Notes under the pieces: generated by a model | The model's input: only the letters and a program-made list of their open reading frames with translations | Database searches by the model: none | Told to the model about the DNA's origin: nothing | Translations under genes and position numbers: made by a program | Virus record (IMG/VR): IMGVR_UViG_3300028195_000003 | Length of the DNA: 64,000 nt | Strand: one strand, 5' to 3' | Origin: an uncultured virus (IMG/VR IMGVR_UViG_3300028195_000003) | Lineage: Duplodnaviria > Heunggongvirae > Uroviricota > Caudoviricetes | In this document: in pieces, positions 7,935 to 62,711 of the stretch | How positions within the stretch are numbered: the first letter of the stretch is position 1 | How the letters are laid out: each line of letters starts with the position of its first letter

Positions 7935-8141
7935 CTACCAGGGCGCGGTCATCGTGAACCGGGTCTGTGTCACTGGAGGCCTGGCGCCGCGGATCTGTAG
8001 CACACGCACCTCCCGGCTCTTGCAGCCGCTCTTGATGACGGTCGGCACACGCACCGGGGCCCGCAGCGGTGACTCTGGCAGATCCAGGATCGCCATGATC
8101 TCGTCGACTTCGCGATCGTAGATGTCATCGTACAAAGACAT
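7935..8141 (-). CDS. Small hypothetical protein downstream of tRNA array
   Basis: GGAGGAG RBS before MSLYDDIYD. Confidence 0.5.
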   Translation of the reverse strand: MSLYDDIYDREVDEIMAILDLPESPLRAPVRVPTVIKSGCKSREVRVLQIRGARPPVTQTRFTMTAPW

Positions 8142-8207
8142 GGACTCCTCCCTCCACAGAGGGCCGCGCCTGATATCGGACACCGCAACATCGTGCAAGA
8201 AGAAAGA

Positions 8208-8278
8208 TGGCAGGGGTAGAGAGAATCGAACTCTCCCCGTAGGGTTTGGAGCCCCACAGTGCGCCCTGGACTACCCCT
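8208..8278 (-). tRNA. trnW: tRNA-Trp(CCA), atypically short D-arm
   Basis: Acceptor AGGGGTA/TACCCCT-G-CCA, anticodon loop CTCCAAA, T-arm GAGAG-TTCGATT-CTCTC; only 71 nt. Confidence 0.75.
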
Positions 8279-8840
8279 TTCGGTTTTCCTTTTTGGACCA
8301 ATGGCCTTGCGGAGGTCGCGACACCCCTATCGTTCTGCACCTCTTCAAGACCGCAACATCTGACACCCCGAACATCTCCGCGATCTTGGTCAACGGCTTC
8401 AGCCACACAAGATCCTGTAGCTCTTCATAAGAAACGTCAAACCTTCTCGATGACACGTTTCCGCACACGGTAGAACAAAACCGACCAACCCCTCCAGTAG
8501 GCACAAAGACGCCCCCGCAGCGCTCACACTTCTTCGCCAGCCTCATATTCCCGCTCTTGGCTTTGTGAAGTTTCGCGTGATCGGATCTGTTCGTTACCAC
8601 AAGATTCAATGGATCGTTATCCAGTCGATCATCGTTCTCATGATGAACAACCTCGTGCCGAACCACCCACCGGCCAATGCCAACAGATGCCACATGCCTG
8701 TGATACAAAACGCGACCAGCAGCCCCCGTTCCAAGAGGATGATCGGCATCGCAAAAGTACAAATATCCAGTCTTCTTATCGACAACAAGTCCCGACACAT
8801 CAACGTATGGATACTGGCTCGGGACATCGTATAGAATCAT
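8271..8840 (-). CDS. HNH homing endonuclease-like protein inside the tRNA array
   Basis: YHRHV...VVHHENDDRLDNDPLNL...SDHAKLH HNH motif, CxxC/FCSxxC zinc finger and C-terminal HTH. More AT-rich than its flanks. GGAGG RBS before ATG 8840. Confidence 0.9.
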   Translation of the reverse strand: MILYDVPSQYPYVDVSGLVVDKKTGYLYFCDADHPLGTGAAGRVLYHRHVASVGIGRWVVRHEVVHHENDDRLDNDPLNLVVTNRSDHAKLHKAKSGNMRLAKKCERCGGVFVPTGGVGRFCSTVCGNVSSRRFDVSYEELQDLVWLKPLTKIAEMFGVSDVAVLKRCRTIGVSRPPQGHWSKKENRKG

Positions 8841-8861
8841 TCTAACCTCCACGGTTAGAAT
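8839..8861 (-). promoter_or_regulatory. RBS-sequestering hairpin of the HNH gene
   Basis: Perfect 9-bp stem ATTCTAACC/GGTTAGAAT with 5-nt loop, spanning GGAGG and the first two bases of ATG. Confidence 0.7.
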
Positions 8862-8871
8862 AACACAAAAA

Positions 8872-8958
8872 TGGTGCACCCGGCCGGACTCGAACCGGCA
8901 CGACCAGGGGGGTCACTGGCATCTCAGGCCAGCGTGTCTGCCATTCCACCACGGGTGC
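8872..8958 (-). tRNA. trnL: tRNA-Leu(GAG)
   Basis: Cloverleaf, anticodon arm CTGGC-CTGAGAT-GCCAG, long variable arm, encoded CCA. Confidence 0.95.
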
Positions 8959-8968
8959 GAAGAAAAAA

Positions 8969-9057
8969 TGGTGATCGAGGCGGGATTCGAACCCGCAAGA
9001 GGGACATGCCCTACCGGGTCCTGAACCCGGCGCGTCCAACCGTTGCGCCACCCGATC
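8969..9057 (-). tRNA. trnL: tRNA-Leu(CAG)
   Basis: CCGGG-TTCAGGA-CCCGG anticodon arm, long variable arm, A73-CCA. Confidence 0.95.
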
Positions 9058-9073
9058 ACGAAAAATAGAAAAA

Positions 9074-9150
9074 TGGAATCGGTGGTCGGATTCGAACCGA
9101 CGAACATCCGATTTGCAGTCGGAGCCCTTGGACCTCTCGGGCACACCGAT
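9074..9150 (-). tRNA. trnC: tRNA-Cys(GCA)
   Basis: TCCGA-CTGCAAA-TCGGA anticodon arm, U73-CCA. Confidence 0.95.
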
Positions 9151-9157
9151 AAGGAAA

Positions 9158-9244
9158 TGGAGGAGGCGGAGGGATTCGAACCCTCGGAGGGGACACCTCT
9201 ACCGCTTTCAAAGCGGGCGCCTTCGACCGCTCGGCCACGCCTCC
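9158..9244 (-). tRNA. trnS: tRNA-Ser(TGA)
   Basis: Loop TTTGAAA, long variable arm, acceptor GGAGGCG/CGCCTCC, CCA. Confidence 0.93.
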
Positions 9245-9250
9245 ATTGTG

Positions 9251-9343
9251 GCCTGCGGCCACCGCTCACCGCCTACCGCTCACCGCCTACCGCACAAAAG
9301 CGGTGAGCGGACAGCAGATAGCGGATAGCGACGAGCCGCAGGC
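9251..9343 (-). repeat. Heptamer-repeat long hairpin, copy 1
   Basis: GCCTGCGGC/GCCGCAGGC closing stem around five YCGC/CYGC-type units facing five GCGG units at 7-nt period. Confidence 0.85.
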
Positions 9344-9351
9344 TCGTGAAC

Positions 9352-9439
9352 TGGCGGAGACGGGGGGATTCGAACCCCCGGAGGGATGAACCTCTCTCGC
9401 TTTCGAAGCGAGTGCCTTGGGCCGCTCGGCCACGTCTCC
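9352..9439 (-). tRNA. trnS: tRNA-Ser(CGA)
   Basis: CTCGC-TTCGAAA-GCGAG anticodon arm, long variable arm, G73-CCA. Confidence 0.95.
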
Positions 9440-9449
9440 TGAAGAGGAC

Positions 9450-9613
9450 TCACGAACAAGAGAGAGCGGGGGAGTACGAGGTTGTCTCGAAAAAGAGACC
9501 GATTTCAAGTCGGTTGCGTCTGCCATTCCGCCATTCCCCCATAGTGGTGGGGGAAGTAGGACTCGAACCTACAGTTTTTCTGAACTCGCACGAAGTTTCT
9601 CTCTCGTCCGTGA
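9450..9613 (-). ncRNA. Circularly permuted tRNA-like gene (anticodon TGA, Leu-like body) enclosed by a long helix
   Basis: In transcript order, the T-arm, acceptor 3' strand and ACCA (9572-9545) come first, then a 4-nt linker CTAT, then the acceptor 5' strand, D-arm and anticodon arm (9540-9498). Flanks 9613-9599 and 9464-9450 form a 15-bp helix. Confidence 0.8.
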
Positions 9614-9616
9614 AGA

Positions 9617-9692
9617 TGGTGGGTAGGGCGGGAGTTGAACCCGCGGTGATGCGATTTTCAGTCGCATGCCTTACCAGCTTGGCTACCTACCC
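9617..9692 (-). tRNA. trnF: tRNA-Phe(GAA)
   Basis: TGCGA-CTGAAAA-TCGCA anticodon arm, 76 nt, CCA. Confidence 0.95.
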
Positions 9693-9699
9693 GGATAAA

Positions 9700-9789
9700 T
9701 GGAGGAGGCGGAGGGATTCGAACCCTCGAGGGCTGTCAGACCCTGCTCGCTTAGCAGGCGAGCGCCTTCGACCGCTCGGCCACGCCTCC
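9700..9789 (-). tRNA. trnS: tRNA-Ser(GCT)
   Basis: CTCGC-CTGCTAA-GCGAG anticodon arm, long variable arm, CCA. Confidence 0.95.
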
Positions 9790-9795
9790 GTTGTG

Positions 9796-9888
9796 GCCTC
9801 CGGCCACCGCTCACCGCCTACCGCTCACCGCCTACCGCACAAGAGCGGTGAGCGGACAGCGGATAGCGGATAGCGACGAGCCGCAGGC
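9796..9888 (-). repeat. Heptamer-repeat long hairpin, copy 2
   Basis: Near-identical to 9251-9343 (offset 545 nt). Confidence 0.85.
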
Positions 9889-9896
9889 TCGTGAAC

Positions 9897-9984
9897 TGGC
9901 GGAGACGGGGGGATTCGAACCCCCGAGGGTGTGACCCCTACTCGCTTTCCAAGCGGGCGCCTTAGGCCTCTCGGCCACGTCTCC
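9897..9984 (-). tRNA. trnS: tRNA-Ser(GGA)
   Basis: Loop TTGGAAA, long variable arm, G73-CCA. Confidence 0.93.
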
Positions 9985-10052
9985 TGAATCGATCACACAG
10001 CGTCGCTCAACGAGCCTCGAGCTCGGAACCGGACACCGCGTATGAAGAATGA

Positions 10053-10145
10053 TGGTGGGTGAGGAGGGAATCGAACCCCCGACGGTCATTACAACTCCGG
10101 GTTTACAGCCCGGTACGGCCTATACCAACAGCACGACACTCACCC
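10053..10145 (-). tRNA. trnY: tRNA-Tyr(GTA), enlarged D-region
   Basis: CCGGG-CTGTAAA-CCCGG anticodon arm, acceptor GGGTGAG/CTCACCC-A-CCA; 93 nt. Confidence 0.88.
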
Positions 10146-10147
10146 AA

Positions 10148-10235
10148 TGGTGCGCGAGGTGGGCTTCGAACCCACAAATGCCATGGAGGCTCCGGTTTTT
10201 GAGGCCGACGCGTCTTCCAGTTCCGCCACTCGCGC
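10148..10235 (-). tRNA. trnL: tRNA-Leu(CAA)
   Basis: Loop CTCAAAA, Leu-type D-arm, long variable arm, A73-CCA. Confidence 0.93.
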
Positions 10236-10300
10236 ACAGAGACAGAACGGATCGATCCTGACGATCGATCCCAGCAATCCATCTTCTGCACGATATTGCG

Positions 10301-10311
10301 ATGTCAAAGAA
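10301..10311 (-). promoter_or_regulatory. boxA-like antitermination site
   Basis: TTCTTTGACAT resembles rrn boxA (TGCTCTTTAACA). It lies between the attenuator and the first tRNA. Confidence 0.55.
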
Positions 10312-10326
10312 TGAAGATCCCACACA

Positions 10327-10364
10327 GTAAAGCCCCCTCGCGGCGGGTGCCGGAGGGGGCTTAC
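10327..10364 (-). terminator. Attenuator terminator hairpin (3:4)
   Basis: AAGCCCCCTC-CGGC-ACCC-GCCG-C-GAGGGGGCTT followed by TACTGTGT (imperfect U-tract). Confidence 0.75.
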
Positions 10365-10392
10365 TTTCGTCTGGGCGGGTGAGATACCGTTC

Positions 10393-10485
10393 CTACGAAG
10401 CCACCTCCGACTGCACGTAGAGCAGCCAGCTGCTGAACGAGCAGCTGAACAAGCTGGTGCGGGAGGTGGTCTGAACGTGGGTCAT
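10393..10485 (-). CDS. Leader peptide of tRNA operon, MTHVQTTSRTSLFSCSFSSWLLYVQSEVAS (30 aa)
   Basis: Hand-translated, ATG 10485 to TAG 10393. Codons 11-23 all match anticodons of the downstream array. It lies between promoter and terminator. Confidence 0.85.
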   Translation of the reverse strand: MTHVQTTSRTSLFSCSFSSWLLYVQSEVAS

Positions 10486-10524
10486 GATCTTCTCTGCCCG
10501 CTGAAACGCCGGGCTCACGTGACA

Positions 10525-10553
10525 AGGCTATCCGTGGCCCACGGGGGTGTCAA
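10525..10553 (-). promoter_or_regulatory. sigma70-type promoter of the tRNA operon
   Basis: TTGACA-17 nt-TAGCCT about 40 nt upstream of the leader ATG. Confidence 0.8.
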
Positions 10554-10596
10554 GCGAAGACCGAAACTTTTTCCACCAGGAGTAGAGAGATGGTCC

Positions 10597-11907
10597 CTAC
10601 CCCCTCCTCCTGGTGTCCCAGACCCAGGCCTTGTCTCTGGTCCGGGTGATGCCGGTGTAGACCATGCGCCGGATGGTCTCGGCGTTCTGGGCCCCCTGCT
10701 TGGCTCTCCACTCCATGGTGTCATCCAGCACGAGCGCGACGAGGGGCCACTGGGAGCCCTGGGATCGGTGGTAGGTAATGGCGTAGCCATAGTCGACGTG
10801 CAGGTAGTGCTTGTAGGTCAGAGCCCGCAGCTGCTTCGAGAAGGGGTAGAAGTGGTCTCCGTACTTGGTCCCGATCAGGCCGGGCTGAATCCAAGCCTTG
10901 CCGTGGTCGAGGCCAGCGCCTGACAACCGCAGCCTCAGGGAGGCCATCTGCTCCGGACCGACGTCTCCGTACCACTGCTCGGCATGCTTCCTGGCGACGC
11001 TCCCTGGAGGGTAGCGACCGTTCCACATCTCCCCGAAGGTCCCCTCGATACCGAGCACCGTGAGCGCCTCCCCGTTCATCCAGCCCAAATCCTTGTTGTT
11101 GTGTCGACACAGCAGCTTCTCACCGACCACGACCGGGCCGAGCTCCCGGTAGCCCATCATCATCCTGATGAGCCGGTTCAGCCCGGCCACGGACTTATTG
11201 GTGAAACAGATAACGGCCACATCGATGCCCGCCTCCATCTGCTCCACGGCCCAGGCTGCCACGTCCGACAAGCTCCCACGCCGGCGAACATAGAAGGGCT
11301 CCACACTCTGCTCTGGCAGCTTTCCACCCTGGCGAACCGCAGCGGAGATGCGCAGGATGGGATTGCCCTTGGACTGCCGATGAATCTCGGTCAGGACCGC
11401 GTCGGGGTTGTCGAAGTCCGGACCCCAACCCTTGCCGCTCACCGGAGGAAGCTGCTCCCGGTCCCCGACATAGATCAGGTTCGACCCAGGCGGCAGGTTG
11501 TCCTCGATGGCGCGATCCAACACCGTGTCGACCATGCTGGACTCGTCGCAGATCAGGACCTCGCCACCCATACAGATCTGCACGGGGTTGTAGAACACCA
11601 CCCCACCATCGTCCTTCTGGCTCACCCCCCGGTACAGTCGGGAGTGGACCGTGGCCACCGGGCGCGGACTGCGGCCCTCCCGTAGCGACATGATCTCACG
11701 AAGCCGGTTGGCAGCCTTCCCTGTCGGTGCCATGTAGGCCACCGGGCGGCTGGCTTCCATCAGCCTGTCCTCGAGCATGTCCACGATGGTGGACTTGCCA
11801 CTGCCGGCTGGGCCGGTCAGCACCAGCTTGCGCTTCCCCTGCATCACGCCCCTGAACAGCGTGTCCAGAGCGATCTCCTGGTCGGGGCTCAATGTGATGA
11901 CGCTCAT
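10597..11907 (-). CDS. Dda/RecD-like SF1B DNA helicase
   Basis: Walker A GPAGSGKS, APTGKAA, DESSMV, GDREQLPPV, LTEIHRQ, YAITYHRSQGSQW, YTGITR. Confidence 0.93.
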   Translation of the reverse strand: MSVITLSPDQEIALDTLFRGVMQGKRKLVLTGPAGSGKSTIVDMLEDRLMEASRPVAYMAPTGKAANRLREIMSLREGRSPRPVATVHSRLYRGVSQKDDGGVVFYNPVQICMGGEVLICDESSMVDTVLDRAIEDNLPPGSNLIYVGDREQLPPVSGKGWGPDFDNPDAVLTEIHRQSKGNPILRISAAVRQGGKLPEQSVEPFYVRRRGSLSDVAAWAVEQMEAGIDVAVICFTNKSVAGLNRLIRMMMGYRELGPVVVGEKLLCRHNNKDLGWMNGEALTVLGIEGTFGEMWNGRYPPGSVARKHAEQWYGDVGPEQMASLRLRLSGAGLDHGKAWIQPGLIGTKYGDHFYPFSKQLRALTYKHYLHVDYGYAITYHRSQGSQWPLVALVLDDTMEWRAKQGAQNAETIRRMVYTGITRTRDKAWVWDTRRRG

Positions 11908-12341: not shown

Positions 12342-12490
12342 CAACGCTCCCAGACAAGAAAAAAGAGTGAGACGGTCGAGGGTCCGATTTCTCGGGACAG
12401 GAGGAACCACCCAGCACAACCCGGGTGGCGAGAGCTACGGAGCCCTCCAACCATCTCATGTAGAACATATATGCCACTGACCGTAGCATG

Positions 12491-13405
12491 TCAACGCTTT
12501 GAATTGATTTCAACGATGCGGCGCCGCACCGACCACCGCTTCAGCGCATCGGCGACCTTCAGCAGGTCCTGCTGAACGCGCTTCTTCTCGAGGCGCTCCT
12601 CCTTGCGCAACGCGACGGTCTCCTCCCTGGTACCGCCTGGGCTCTCCAGTCGTAGCAGATAGGAAGGATGGAAGGTGGGACGCACCGGGATCGAACCACG
12701 GTAGACGAACCAGTTGCCGCGGAAAGAGTGGATACTGCCAGGACGATTCAGCAGCATCCGGGTCGCGAAGACCCCCAACGTCACGATGACCTTGGGTTTC
12801 ACGACTCGAAGCTGCGCATCCAGAAAACACCTGCAGGCGTCCATCTCGGATTCGCTCGGATCTTCGTTCTTGTCAGGACGGCATTTTAGCACGTTGATGA
12901 CATAGACTTCGTCTCGAGAGAGCTCCAGTACACGCCGCAGCATCCGGTCCAGAATCTCCCCGGATCTACCGATGAACGGCTCCCCACCGCGCTCCTCGTT
13001 CTTGCCTGGAGCCTCACCGATCAGAACCAGATCAGCGGTGGGACTGCCCTTGCCAAAGACGATGCGACCCCCCACACGCTCCCGGCGAAGGCCCAGATCA
13101 CAACGCAGACAGCCCTGAATCTGTCTCTCCATCCCGTCAAGCTGACCCCCCGCCCCGAGTGCGGCCGAAGGAAGAACGAGATCCCCGTTCTGATCCAGCT
13201 GCGCCTCGTCCTCCGACCAGACGACCTTGGGACCATCCGTCTCACTCGAGACGGGCGAAGCCTTCGTAGCATCATCCCTCGACCACTGCTTCTGGTCGTA
13301 GTTGTCGCCACGGAACTTCGCGCCTATGGAGACGAGCGAGGCCTCGATCCGGGCGATGTCATCGTCCAGCTCACGAAACCTTCGCTCTTCTTCTGCGGCA
13401 GCCAC
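12491..13405 (-). CDS. Uracil-DNA glycosylase family 4 with N-terminal extension
   Basis: CLRC, IGEAPGKNEE..GEPFIGRSG, NVLKCRP, TFHPSYLLR. Confidence 0.93.
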   Translation of the reverse strand: MAAAEEERRFRELDDDIARIEASLVSIGAKFRGDNYDQKQWSRDDATKASPVSSETDGPKVVWSEDEAQLDQNGDLVLPSAALGAGGQLDGMERQIQGCLRCDLGLRRERVGGRIVFGKGSPTADLVLIGEAPGKNEERGGEPFIGRSGEILDRMLRRVLELSRDEVYVINVLKCRPDKNEDPSESEMDACRCFLDAQLRVVKPKVIVTLGVFATRMLLNRPGSIHSFRGNWFVYRGSIPVRPTFHPSYLLRLESPGGTREETVALRKEERLEKKRVQQDLLKVADALKRWSVRRRIVEINSKR

Positions 13406-61607: not shown

Positions 61608-62633
61608 CTAAATGGGTCTGATGAACCACATAACGGTCACCGTGTTGTTCATCGCGAACTGCGAGCCCTGAACGGGGTACCGAATCCAAGGAATGGAGGC
61701 AACGGCGACCATGTCGACGCCGATCAGCGGGTTGATCCACCTGATACCGCCCGCAGCAGCAGTGCTCGTTGGTGACACGCTCCACACCACGTCGTAGGCC
61801 CCCTCCGGTACGTTGAAGATCTGATCATTGACATTGTCACCGACGTAGGTCTGGGCGAAGTACAGCTGCTGATCACCAGCCTGAAGCCCCGTGACCTCCC
61901 AAGCCCACTGCAGCACGTCTGTCAGGTTGGTCTTGGAGAGAATCTCCACACGGACGGTCTGGTACCCGTCCAACAAGAAGCTGGCGGTGTAACCGCCACC
62001 AAGGAAGAAGGTGCGCTGGGTCTCTGCGCCACCAGGAGATCCGGCCGTCAAGCGGACGATGAGCTCGCTGTTCCCGTTGTTCGGAAAAGCGCGCAGGCTC
62101 AGGTATGGACGCTCCGCAGACGGATGCAGGGTCATGCTCTCCGTCGCCAGACCTGCCCCAAGGGTTCCAGACTGCCAGCGGTTCTTCTCCGCCCTGTCGA
62201 GCTCTTCGACGAACCCGGGGGCCCGAGAACCCGTCTCGAGGAAGCCCGCCTGCTGACGAGCATCCCAGGGCTGCCGATCGTAGCCTGTCAGCTGACCGGA
62301 TGTTCCCATCTGGGTCATGCGCCAGCCGCGCACACTCGGAGCCGGGTAGACCGTAGCGTCCGATCGGACGTCCATACCGGCATGAACAGTCCTGTACTTG
62401 GCAGCCCTCATCGACTCCTCTGCGGCCCGTGCCGCATAGGGATCGAAGATGCGCCGCCCAACCTGGCGGAACTCCCTCTCCAGATCCTCGTTGGCGTCCA
62501 CCACCTGGCCGCTCTCCCTGAGTGCCAGCTGCTCTTGACTGGTGAAGTCGCGCTGGACCTGCGGACTACGCGGACCCTTGGTCTTGGATGGATAGGGCTG
62601 CCAGCCGCCAGCGCTCGTGCGTCTCCTGCTCAT
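61608..62633 (-). CDS. Tandem paralog 1 of 3
   Basis: Same conserved blocks; ends WFIRPI; AGGAGG RBS. Confidence 0.85.
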   Translation of the reverse strand: MSRRRTSAGGWQPYPSKTKGPRSPQVQRDFTSQEQLALRESGQVVDANEDLEREFRQVGRRIFDPYAARAAEESMRAAKYRTVHAGMDVRSDATVYPAPSVRGWRMTQMGTSGQLTGYDRQPWDARQQAGFLETGSRAPGFVEELDRAEKNRWQSGTLGAGLATESMTLHPSAERPYLSLRAFPNNGNSELIVRLTAGSPGGAETQRTFFLGGGYTASFLLDGYQTVRVEILSKTNLTDVLQWAWEVTGLQAGDQQLYFAQTYVGDNVNDQIFNVPEGAYDVVWSVSPTSTAAAGGIRWINPLIGVDMVAVASIPWIRYPVQGSQFAMNNTVTVMWFIRPI

Positions 62634-62711
62634 GCTGCAGCCTCCTGTCCTGGAATGGCCGGCTCATCGTGTTCACCAGTGACATCGACAAGGCGTGACC
62701 TCGTCTTCATC

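Follow-up and report, generated by a model that had tools for sequence, protein, structure and literature searches.

The reasons for which phages carry tRNA genes, and the ways in which they control them, have been under debate for decades, with codon compensation, the turnover of host tRNAs and escape from tRNA-cleaving defences among the proposals. The locus described here raises the question of when such genes are transcribed, and whether a ribosome that reads a short open reading frame (ORF) in front of a phage tRNA array may take part in that decision. An earlier note on this DNA had proposed that the leader of the array contains the alternative pairings of a complete attenuator, numbered 1:2, 2:3 and 3:4. 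We have followed up this proposal computationally in the window, by which we mean the whole stretch of 64,000 nucleotides from an uncultured virus of the Caudoviricetes (IMG/VR record IMGVR_UViG_3300028195_000003).

The tRNA array and its surroundings

The window encodes DnaE, UDG, a RecD-like helicase, ArdC-like and PcfJ-like proteins, a phage tail lysozyme domain and an HNH endonuclease, and because of this gene content it looks like a large phage. Its G+C content ranged from 58.5% to 65.7% in 2-kb steps. The same DNA was found in 20 metagenome runs of marine or seawater origin, which came from 17 studies and included no RNA run. The 4 metagenome runs that were aligned to the window contained no variant letters, and one of the 4 spanned the whole stretch.

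The array consists of 11 tRNA genes on the minus strand (8208-10235), identified with ARAGORN and the Rfam tRNA model, in the order Leu-CAA, Tyr-GTA, Ser-GGA, Ser-GCT, Phe-GAA, Ser-CGA, Ser-TGA, Cys-GCA, Leu-CAG, Leu-GAG and Trp-CCA. The last 2 genes are separated by an ORF for an HNH endonuclease on the same strand (8271-8879; HNH_3, E 1.9e-5), and HNH genes are similarly located within the tRNA island of the Microbacterium phage A3Wally. A scan of positions 8000-11000 against Rfam (E <= 1) returned tRNA matches, with no leader family and no T-box; the sub-threshold matches in this region were to the tmRNA, sX4, plastid UTR and sR10 families. A 9-bp hairpin, GGATCGATC-GTCAG-GATCGATCC followed by GTTCTGTCTC, was located 14 nt before the gene for tRNA-Leu (10249-10271, minus strand), where it could act in termination, as a second terminator, or in processing.

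A short leader ORF behind a promoter-like site

Upstream of the leader, pattern matching identified a sigma-70-like promoter on the minus strand (10525-10553), with TTGACA at 10553-10548, a spacer of 17 nt and TAGCCT at 10530-10525. This was one of 3 matches to TTGACA-N15-19-TANNNT in the window, where 0.26 were expected. A simple automated scan for promoters and terminators called neither this promoter nor the 3:4 hairpin described below. Another good promoter-like site, TTGACA-N19-TATGTT, was noted at the end of the UDG gene (12464-12494, minus strand), upstream of the ORF at 12419-11904.

The promoter is followed by the leader ORF, MSPAFQRAEKIMTHVQTTSRTSLFSCSFSSWLLYVQSEVAS (10393-10518, minus strand), which comprises 41 codons if read from GTG 10518 and 30 codons if read from ATG 10485, with the stop codon TAG at 10395-10393. 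The GTG codon is located 7 nt past the -10 hexamer, which is the spacing of a leaderless mRNA, while the ATG codon has a weak Shine-Dalgarno (SD) sequence (-3.6 kcal/mol versus -5 to -12.7 kcal/mol for most genes). Because of this spacing and the weak SD sequence, translation would probably be leaderless from GUG 10518. A distance of 6 to 7 nt between the -10 hexamer and the start codon recurs in the analogous phage leaders described below. The choice between the 2 start codons leaves the control codons of the leader unchanged.

No acceptable promoter was found in the interval between the putative terminator and the first tRNA gene. Just 3' of the terminator there is a TTGACA hexamer (10302-10307, minus strand) with no TANNNT at a distance of 15 to 19 nt; if it were part of an active promoter, the attenuator would be bypassed.

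Control codons that match the anticodons of the array

When the leader was compared with the anticodons of the array, codons 11 to 23, counted from ATG 10485 (10417-10455, minus strand), were all found to be exact Watson-Crick cognates. These 13 consecutive control codons are AGC TTG TTC AGC TGC TCG TTC AGC AGC TGG CTG CTC TAC (S L F S C S F S S W L L Y). They cover 9 distinct cognate codons, including the rare TTG and TGC, which make up 0.5% and 0.7% of codons, respectively. Over the whole leader, 16 of the 30 codons are cognate, all 6 amino acids of the array (Ser, Leu, Phe, Cys, Trp and Tyr) are present, and 10 of the 11 anticodons are represented, the missing one being Ser-TGA (codon TCA).

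The 11 cognate codons of the array account for 22% of the codons in 13 long ORFs and for 20% over the 6 frames. The fraction of cognate codons in the leader was not extreme among the 442 small ORFs of the window, since out-of-frame, Ser-rich ORFs reached values of up to 0.58. This fraction is therefore uninformative, and the length of the uninterrupted run was used instead. The run of 13 codons was the longest in the 6 frames of the window, followed by runs of 10 and 7 codons. The number of cognate runs decayed by 0.269 per codon, from which 0.0023 runs of at least 13 codons are expected in the window, and none of 100 windows simulated with a first-order Markov model reached even a run of 10 codons. 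The run is located within about 300 nt directly upstream of the array and on the correct strand. What is exceptional in the codon match is confined to the uninterrupted run and its position.

A second leader might have been seen in the run of 10 codons at 62624-62653 (plus strand; S C S C C S L L S W), but this reading was rejected. The run is part of an ORF of 36 codons that runs antisense to the beginning of the gene at 61608-62633, no tRNA gene is nearby, and about 0.12 such runs are expected by chance.

Mutually exclusive pairings in the leader

The leader contains 4 segments, all on the minus strand. Segment 1, the 5' half of the anti-antiterminator, is CCACCUCC, or CCACCTCC (10462-10469). 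Segment 2, GUCGGAGGUGGCUU (10398-10411), lies within the final codons of the leader and has segments 1 and 3 as alternative partners. Segment 3, AAGCCCCCUCCGGC (10349-10362), is both the 5' arm of the putative terminator and the antiterminator partner of segment 2, and segment 4, GAGGGGGCTT (10339-10330), is the 3' arm of the terminator. Segments 3 and 4 together with the U-rich tail UUUACUGUGUG were predicted by folding to form an intrinsic terminator hairpin (10321-10366), with a core at 10362-10330 and an extended form at 10366-10326. Segment 2 (GGAGGUG) also resembles a perfect SD sequence, with no start codon at the SD distance downstream, and segments 1 and 3 (CACCUCC and CCCUCC) resemble anti-SD sequences (10398-10469, minus strand).

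The pairings listed in the earlier note were recovered when the minus strand was read anew. Segment 1 (CCACCTCC, 10469-10462) is perfectly complementary over 8 of 8 positions to GGAGGTGG (10408-10401) in segment 2, and CGGAGGTGGCTT (10409-10398) pairs at 11 of 12 positions with AAGCCCCCTCCG (10362-10351) in segment 3. The sole mismatch in the latter is U10403 with C10357, and folding lengthened the duplex by 2 pairs, G10411-C10349 and U10410-G10350. The terminator stem, AAGCCCCCTC (10362-10353) with GAGGGGGCTT, is paired at 10 of 10 positions. An 8-bp hairpin that had been placed inside the control codons, CAGCTGCT-CGTTC-AGCAGCTG (10427-10447, minus strand), folded with -11.7 kcal/mol, and it is followed on its 3' side by a second hairpin of 5 bp (10426-10410, minus strand). 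The U-tract, described earlier as imperfect, is indeed so: GGGGGC is followed by UUUACUGU, in which 5 of 8 positions are U.

The leader thus contains the mutually exclusive 1:2, 2:3 and 3:4 pairings that a leader-peptide attenuator requires. The folding energies were -34.4 kcal/mol for the 1:2 domain, -28.2 kcal/mol for 2:3, and -28.1 and -30.2 kcal/mol for the core and extended forms of 3:4, a hierarchy that resembles that of classical attenuators. The minimum free energy structure of 10500-10315 consists of 1:2 plus 3:4 and has an energy of -91 kcal/mol (z -5.56), which was matched by none of 200 shuffled sequences.

Each duplex was also compared with dinucleotide shuffles and with natural windows of the same sequence. 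Among the shuffles, 19 of 2000 equalled the energy of the 2:3 duplex (-22.7) and 159 of 2000 that of the 1:2 duplex (-18.9); among the natural windows, 20 of 839 and 98 of 1192 did so, respectively. By these counts, the 1:2 pairing alone is not significant and the 2:3 pairing is modestly so. What is unusual is the combination of the pairings with their position.

Folding with a masked ribosome

Constrained folding with masked ribosome footprints, a check that had been named in the earlier note, was carried out by computing pair probabilities with the ribosome covering positions -15 to +11 (or to +14) relative to the A site and with pairs across the footprint forbidden. With no ribosome, the probability of 1:2 in the full transcript was 0.997 and that of 3:4 was 0.90; with segment 4 not yet transcribed, the probabilities of 1:2 and 2:3 were 0.71 and 0.26, respectively. 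When the A site was placed at codons 1 to 22, counted from ATG 10485, the probability of 2:3 before the appearance of segment 4 increased to 0.72-0.91. It was 0.60 for an A site at Tyr-23 and 0.12 for one at codon 24, and it was 0 for every position from codon 25 up to and including the stop codon, where segment 2 is covered. A footprint longer by 3 nt moved all values by one codon.

The simulated leader switched between 2:3 and 3:4 as predicted. The terminator was favoured with no translation and with a ribosome at the stop codon, which reproduces one claim of the earlier note. Stalling at codons 11 to 23, which had been thought to leave segment 2 free, gave a 2:3 probability of at least 0.60 through codon 23. 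Since this probability falls at codons 23 to 25, the permissive zone ends approximately at the last control codon.

With segment 4 present, the terminator conformer won for every position of the ribosome (-42.7 versus -35.7 kcal/mol). As the terminator always wins at equilibrium, read-through must be kinetic. The read-through decision is kinetic in classical attenuators, and what we propose here is likewise comparable to the trp attenuator.

Search for related loci

No homologous locus was found in the viral contigs when these were searched with the helicase protein, with a degenerate back-translation of the leader peptide or with DnaE, and an alignment of the 4 closest helicases yielded no confirmed locus in the viral and genome contigs. 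Close relatives of the helicase, P0002 and P0003, encoded on contigs of 385 kb and 30 kb, were 71% and 66% identical. A broader helicase alignment retrieved 80 loci from the metagenome contigs, most with 21% to 36% identity and with a maximum of 42% for the best segment. Scanning 60 of these 80 loci for tRNAs revealed 3 single tRNAs and no array. A blastn search of 8000-11000 against phages gave only tRNA-level matches, and all 1432 records obtained by tblastn with DnaE were less than 60% identical.

Analogous leaders in cultured phages

Two tRNA islands that had been fetched for other reasons, those of CcrBL10 (locus L081) and A3Wally (locus L082), were screened for the leader design, and it was present in both. 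With the window, this class of leader has been met in 3 unrelated phage lineages.

In the phiCbK-like Dolichocephalovirinae phages of Caulobacter and Brevundimonas, 2 families of leaders were identified. The layout of family A, of which CcrBL10 has a member at L081 10118-10213, consists of TTGACC-N17-TAGTTT, 7 nt, ATG, an ORF such as MSKSYRQFVQIQVVRNFRAGRSRMDDGGTFI, a canonical terminator and an array of tRNA genes for (Tyr/Phe), Val, Ile, Val, Gln, (Asn) and Arg. The region was matched by blastn in 49 records, 11 of which form the basis of the counts given here. All 11 loci contained an ORF of 30 to 32 codons rich in Y, R, Q, N, F, V and I, followed by a terminator and a Tyr/Phe/Val/Ile/Gln/Asn/Arg array. 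The residues of the peptides are permuted between phages, with the composition kept, as in QFVQIQVVRNF versus NNVRQIRVRQFN.

A 1:2 hairpin over the Val-Val-Arg codons was predicted in all 11 loci (-11.5 to -16.8 kcal/mol), along with a 2:3 duplex of -22 to -32 kcal/mol and a terminator of -25 to -31 kcal/mol per phage. In an alignment of these phages, the antiterminator was 97.5% paired with 3 compensated pairs, a score reached by 3 of 500 shuffles, and the terminator was 98.7% paired with 4 compensated pairs, a score reached by 0 of 500 shuffles. These compensatory changes support both the terminator and the antiterminator predicted for family A.

The leader of family B, MFALSHLSLSTKAASPASLSLALLATATKPSTKPTTSASHSTETL, is annotated as gp083 in phiCbK and gp078 in CcrBL10 and has a terminator downstream. 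It contains all 6 amino acids of the annotated array (A, H, K, L, P and T), which make up 32 of the 44 residues after the initial Met. Most of the remaining residues are Ser, and these would match 3 tandem tRNA-Ser-like sequences, with anticodon loops CGA, GGA and GCT, that were seen by eye in the CcrBL10 island. These sequences and a Tyr-GTA-like one, also seen by eye (L081 9500-9790 and 10330-10420), are annotated neither in the GenBank record nor by ARAGORN. A weak Rfam tRNA match (29.5 bits) was obtained at L081 10421-10492.

Other features of the CcrBL10 island are described here for completeness. The Glu/Asp block was rejected as an example of the design because just 3 of the 20 codons of its mini-ORF encode Glu or Asp. 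The Trp/Gly block, also a weak or negative case, is preceded by an ordinary gene for a protein of 89 amino acids. On the 3' side of the family A terminator (L081 10290-10325), a strong SD sequence (GAGGAGAT) and a mini-ORF of 5 codons precede the first tRNA-like gene; this arrangement, with the mini-ORF reading ATG AAC AAC GGG GGC TAG or a variant thereof, was also seen at the corresponding position in Rogue, Colossus, CcrPW, Kikimora and Domovoi. A skipping-rope RNA (RF02924, 48.6 bits, above the gathering score) was found directly 3' of the gene for tRNA-Gly (L081 7173-7269).

In the Microbacterium phages A3Wally, Cece, Pumpernickel and Zooman, 2 leaders were found, each of which spells the amino acids of its own array. 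Leader 1, MRKFYEFDLHLEPLWGV, precedes genes for Pro, His, Met, Asp, Glu, Tyr, Phe and Leu tRNAs, and leader 2, MTSSKRNQWSVTGTTVNGSSGVL, precedes genes for Ser, Lys, Gly, Thr, Val, Asn, Trp, Arg and Gln tRNAs. Of the 22 residues of leader 2, 21 are cognate to its own array, as are 16 of the 22 codons, versus 1 of 22 for the other array. Both leaders have their start codon 6 nt past the -10 hexamer and are kept, unannotated, in related phages, and the stems of their terminators contain compensated changes.

In the A3Wally record, the tRNA names give the impression that anticodons were taken for codons; for example, the genes named tRNA-Trp(tgg), tRNA-Arg(cgg) and tRNA-Val(gtg) are Pro-TGG, Pro-CGG and His-GTG according to ARAGORN. 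The Zooman record has tRNA-Pro(tgg), and the leader peptides agree with the ARAGORN identities. The gene for tRNA-Ser(GGA) at position 8996 of the A3Wally record is overlapped by an annotated hypothetical CDS.

Comparison with known regulatory systems

Leader-peptide attenuators are known from the amino-acid operon leaders trpL, hisL, leuL, thrL and pheL and from the multivalent ilvGMEDA leader. With these, the element in the window shares a short ORF, clustered control codons, overlapping 1:2, 2:3 and 3:4 pairings and a putative intrinsic terminator before the first gene. As in those leaders, a ribosome that has reached the stop codon is predicted to mask segment 2, and an untranslated leader is predicted to terminate. 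It differs in that the regulated genes encode tRNAs, whereas theirs encode biosynthetic enzymes, in that its codons cover 6 amino acids and match individual anticodons (10 of 11), and in that it would sense its own product, decoding capacity. Furthermore, its control codons are located in the loop between segments 1 and 2, whereas theirs are inside segment 1. Family A also differs from the window in this respect and is like trp, since the control codons are overlapped by its 1:2 hairpin. Leader-peptide attenuation is described in general terms in PMC1183508. The window element matches none of the Trp, His, Leu and Thr leader families in Rfam.

Attenuation of a component of the translation apparatus is known from the pheM leader of the pheST operon for phenylalanyl-tRNA synthetase, which differs in having a single amino-acid specificity and in regulating a protein-coding gene rather than tRNA genes. 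T-box riboswitches, which regulate aminoacyl-tRNA synthetase and amino-acid genes, bind uncharged tRNA directly and use no ribosome. The choice between terminator and antiterminator in a 5' leader that reports the state of tRNA is shared with the T-box, but the window element contains an ORF, and scanning 8000-11000 against Rfam revealed no T-box. The leaderless polycysteine short ORFs of mycobacteria are presented in bioRxiv 10.1101/834739 as attenuators that sense one amino acid and control a downstream operon. As portrayed there, they share with the window a short ORF at the 5' end of the transcript that senses amino-acid supply, and differ in their single amino acid, their protein-coding target genes and a mechanism that is not necessarily an intrinsic terminator.

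The phiCbK-like and Microbacterium leaders share with the window the succession of promoter, ORF (17 to 45 codons) spelling its own tRNAs, predicted terminator and array. They differ in having no sequence similarity to the window leader, other sets of amino acids and canonical U-tracts. A full-text search of the literature gave no description of leader-peptide attenuation of tRNA genes, and the words 'attenuat' and 'leader' had 0 occurrences in the phiCbK genome paper (PMC3556154) and in a paper on phage tRNAs and the evasion of defences (PMC10264068). The logic of attenuation is known for amino-acid genes; for tRNA genes, no published case was found.

Discussion

We consider it likely, on evidence that is entirely in silico, that the element is a ribosome-mediated, leader-peptide transcription attenuator that gates the phage tRNA operon. 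The marine phage would then probably make the tRNAs of the array only when ribosomes decode the corresponding codons slowly. The explanation, in which we have fairly good confidence, rests on the geometry of the leader, the masked folding, the codon run, its position and the covarying analogues, the last of which lend indirect support from cultured phages. The sequence, the pairings and their energies, the behaviour of the folding model and the codon match are observations, and from them we infer the translation of the ORF, termination and a switch in vivo.

The attenuator would work as follows. RNA polymerase would begin transcription from the 10553-10525 promoter, and translation of the leader ORF would proceed as it emerges, probably as a leaderless message from GUG 10518. 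With plentiful charged Ser, Leu, Phe, Cys, Trp and Tyr tRNAs, the ribosome would reach the stop codon and cover segment 2, and with no translation segment 2 would be held by segment 1. In both cases the 3:4 terminator would form and RNA polymerase would halt before the tRNA genes. Slow decoding of any control codon would instead stall the ribosome at codons 11 to 23, where it would keep segment 1 off segment 2 and leave the latter free. Segment 2 could then pair with the emerging segment 3, no terminator would form, and the 11 tRNA genes would be transcribed. Because the control codons are cognate to the downstream tRNAs, this loop would constitute direct product feedback on decoding capacity.

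A chance ORF beside an ordinary hairpin is another account, and we regard it as quite unlikely. The hairpin would be a plain terminator, or alternatively a structure that stabilises the 5' leader of the pre-tRNA or serves in its processing; the ORF would be untranslated, and the array would be read through constitutively or driven from elsewhere. Out-of-frame sequence of high G+C content is rich in Ser, Leu, Cys and Trp codons, such that small ORFs reach a cognate fraction of 0.58, and a second cognate run of 10 codons is located at 62624-62653, with no tRNA gene close by; yet a run of 13 codons is expected only 0.0023 times per window, and the one observed spans 9 distinct cognate codons, rare TTG and TGC among them, directly upstream of the array and on the correct strand. 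The 1:2 pairing that is not significant on its own and the weak SD sequence are also in line with chance, whereas the recurrence of the layout in unrelated phages, with covariation, argues against it. The TTGACA hexamer at 10307-10302 would fit an array driven from elsewhere, but it has no TANNNT at 15 to 19 nt. That the product of the ORF is a small protein with its own function, the composition being unrelated to regulation, seems very improbable. The frame is open over 30 to 41 codons behind a promoter-like site and would suit such a protein. Against it, the searches described above turned up no relative of the surrounding locus. Among the analogues, residues are permuted while the composition is kept, which fits selection on codon content and not on a folded peptide, and the composition of each leader tracks its own array.

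It is also conceivable, although unlikely, that the leader is translated and senses decoding speed and that, in place of intrinsic termination, stalling or coupling governs Rho access, RNase processing or precursor stability, or the folding of the first tRNA. Such an output would be compatible with the imperfect U-tract, with the thermodynamic dominance of the terminator in every state and with the extra hairpin at 10271-10249 just before the gene for tRNA-Leu. Against it stand the GC hairpin of -28 to -30 kcal/mol followed by UUUACUGU and the competing antiterminator of 14 bp, placed so as to be masked by a ribosome at the stop codon, which together make up the specific anatomy of intrinsic attenuation, as well as the canonical U-tracts of the analogues.

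Beyond the attenuator favoured for this locus, we lean towards the broader view that phage tRNA arrays are commonly autoregulated by 'table-of-contents' leaders that gate terminators, a widespread and unpublished class that would include the element in the window. Each array, or block of an array, would on balance be preceded by a short ORF, in many cases leaderless, whose sequence enumerates the amino acids and codons of the tRNAs in that array or block. The leaders found in the analogous phages are mostly unannotated, and the design would provide an annotation rule for promoters, small ORFs and operon boundaries in tRNA islands. Since it occurs in cultured phages of Caulobacter crescentus (phiCbK-like) and Microbacterium, the idea is directly testable.

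If this is true, decoding capacity would be measured codon by codon and the set of tRNAs made only on demand, for example when host tRNAs are scarce, mismatched to the codon usage of the phage or cleaved by anticodon-nuclease defences. The phage would monitor decoding capacity directly and supply tRNAs by feedback, and the paradigm of attenuation would be extended from metabolic enzymes to the decoding machinery itself.
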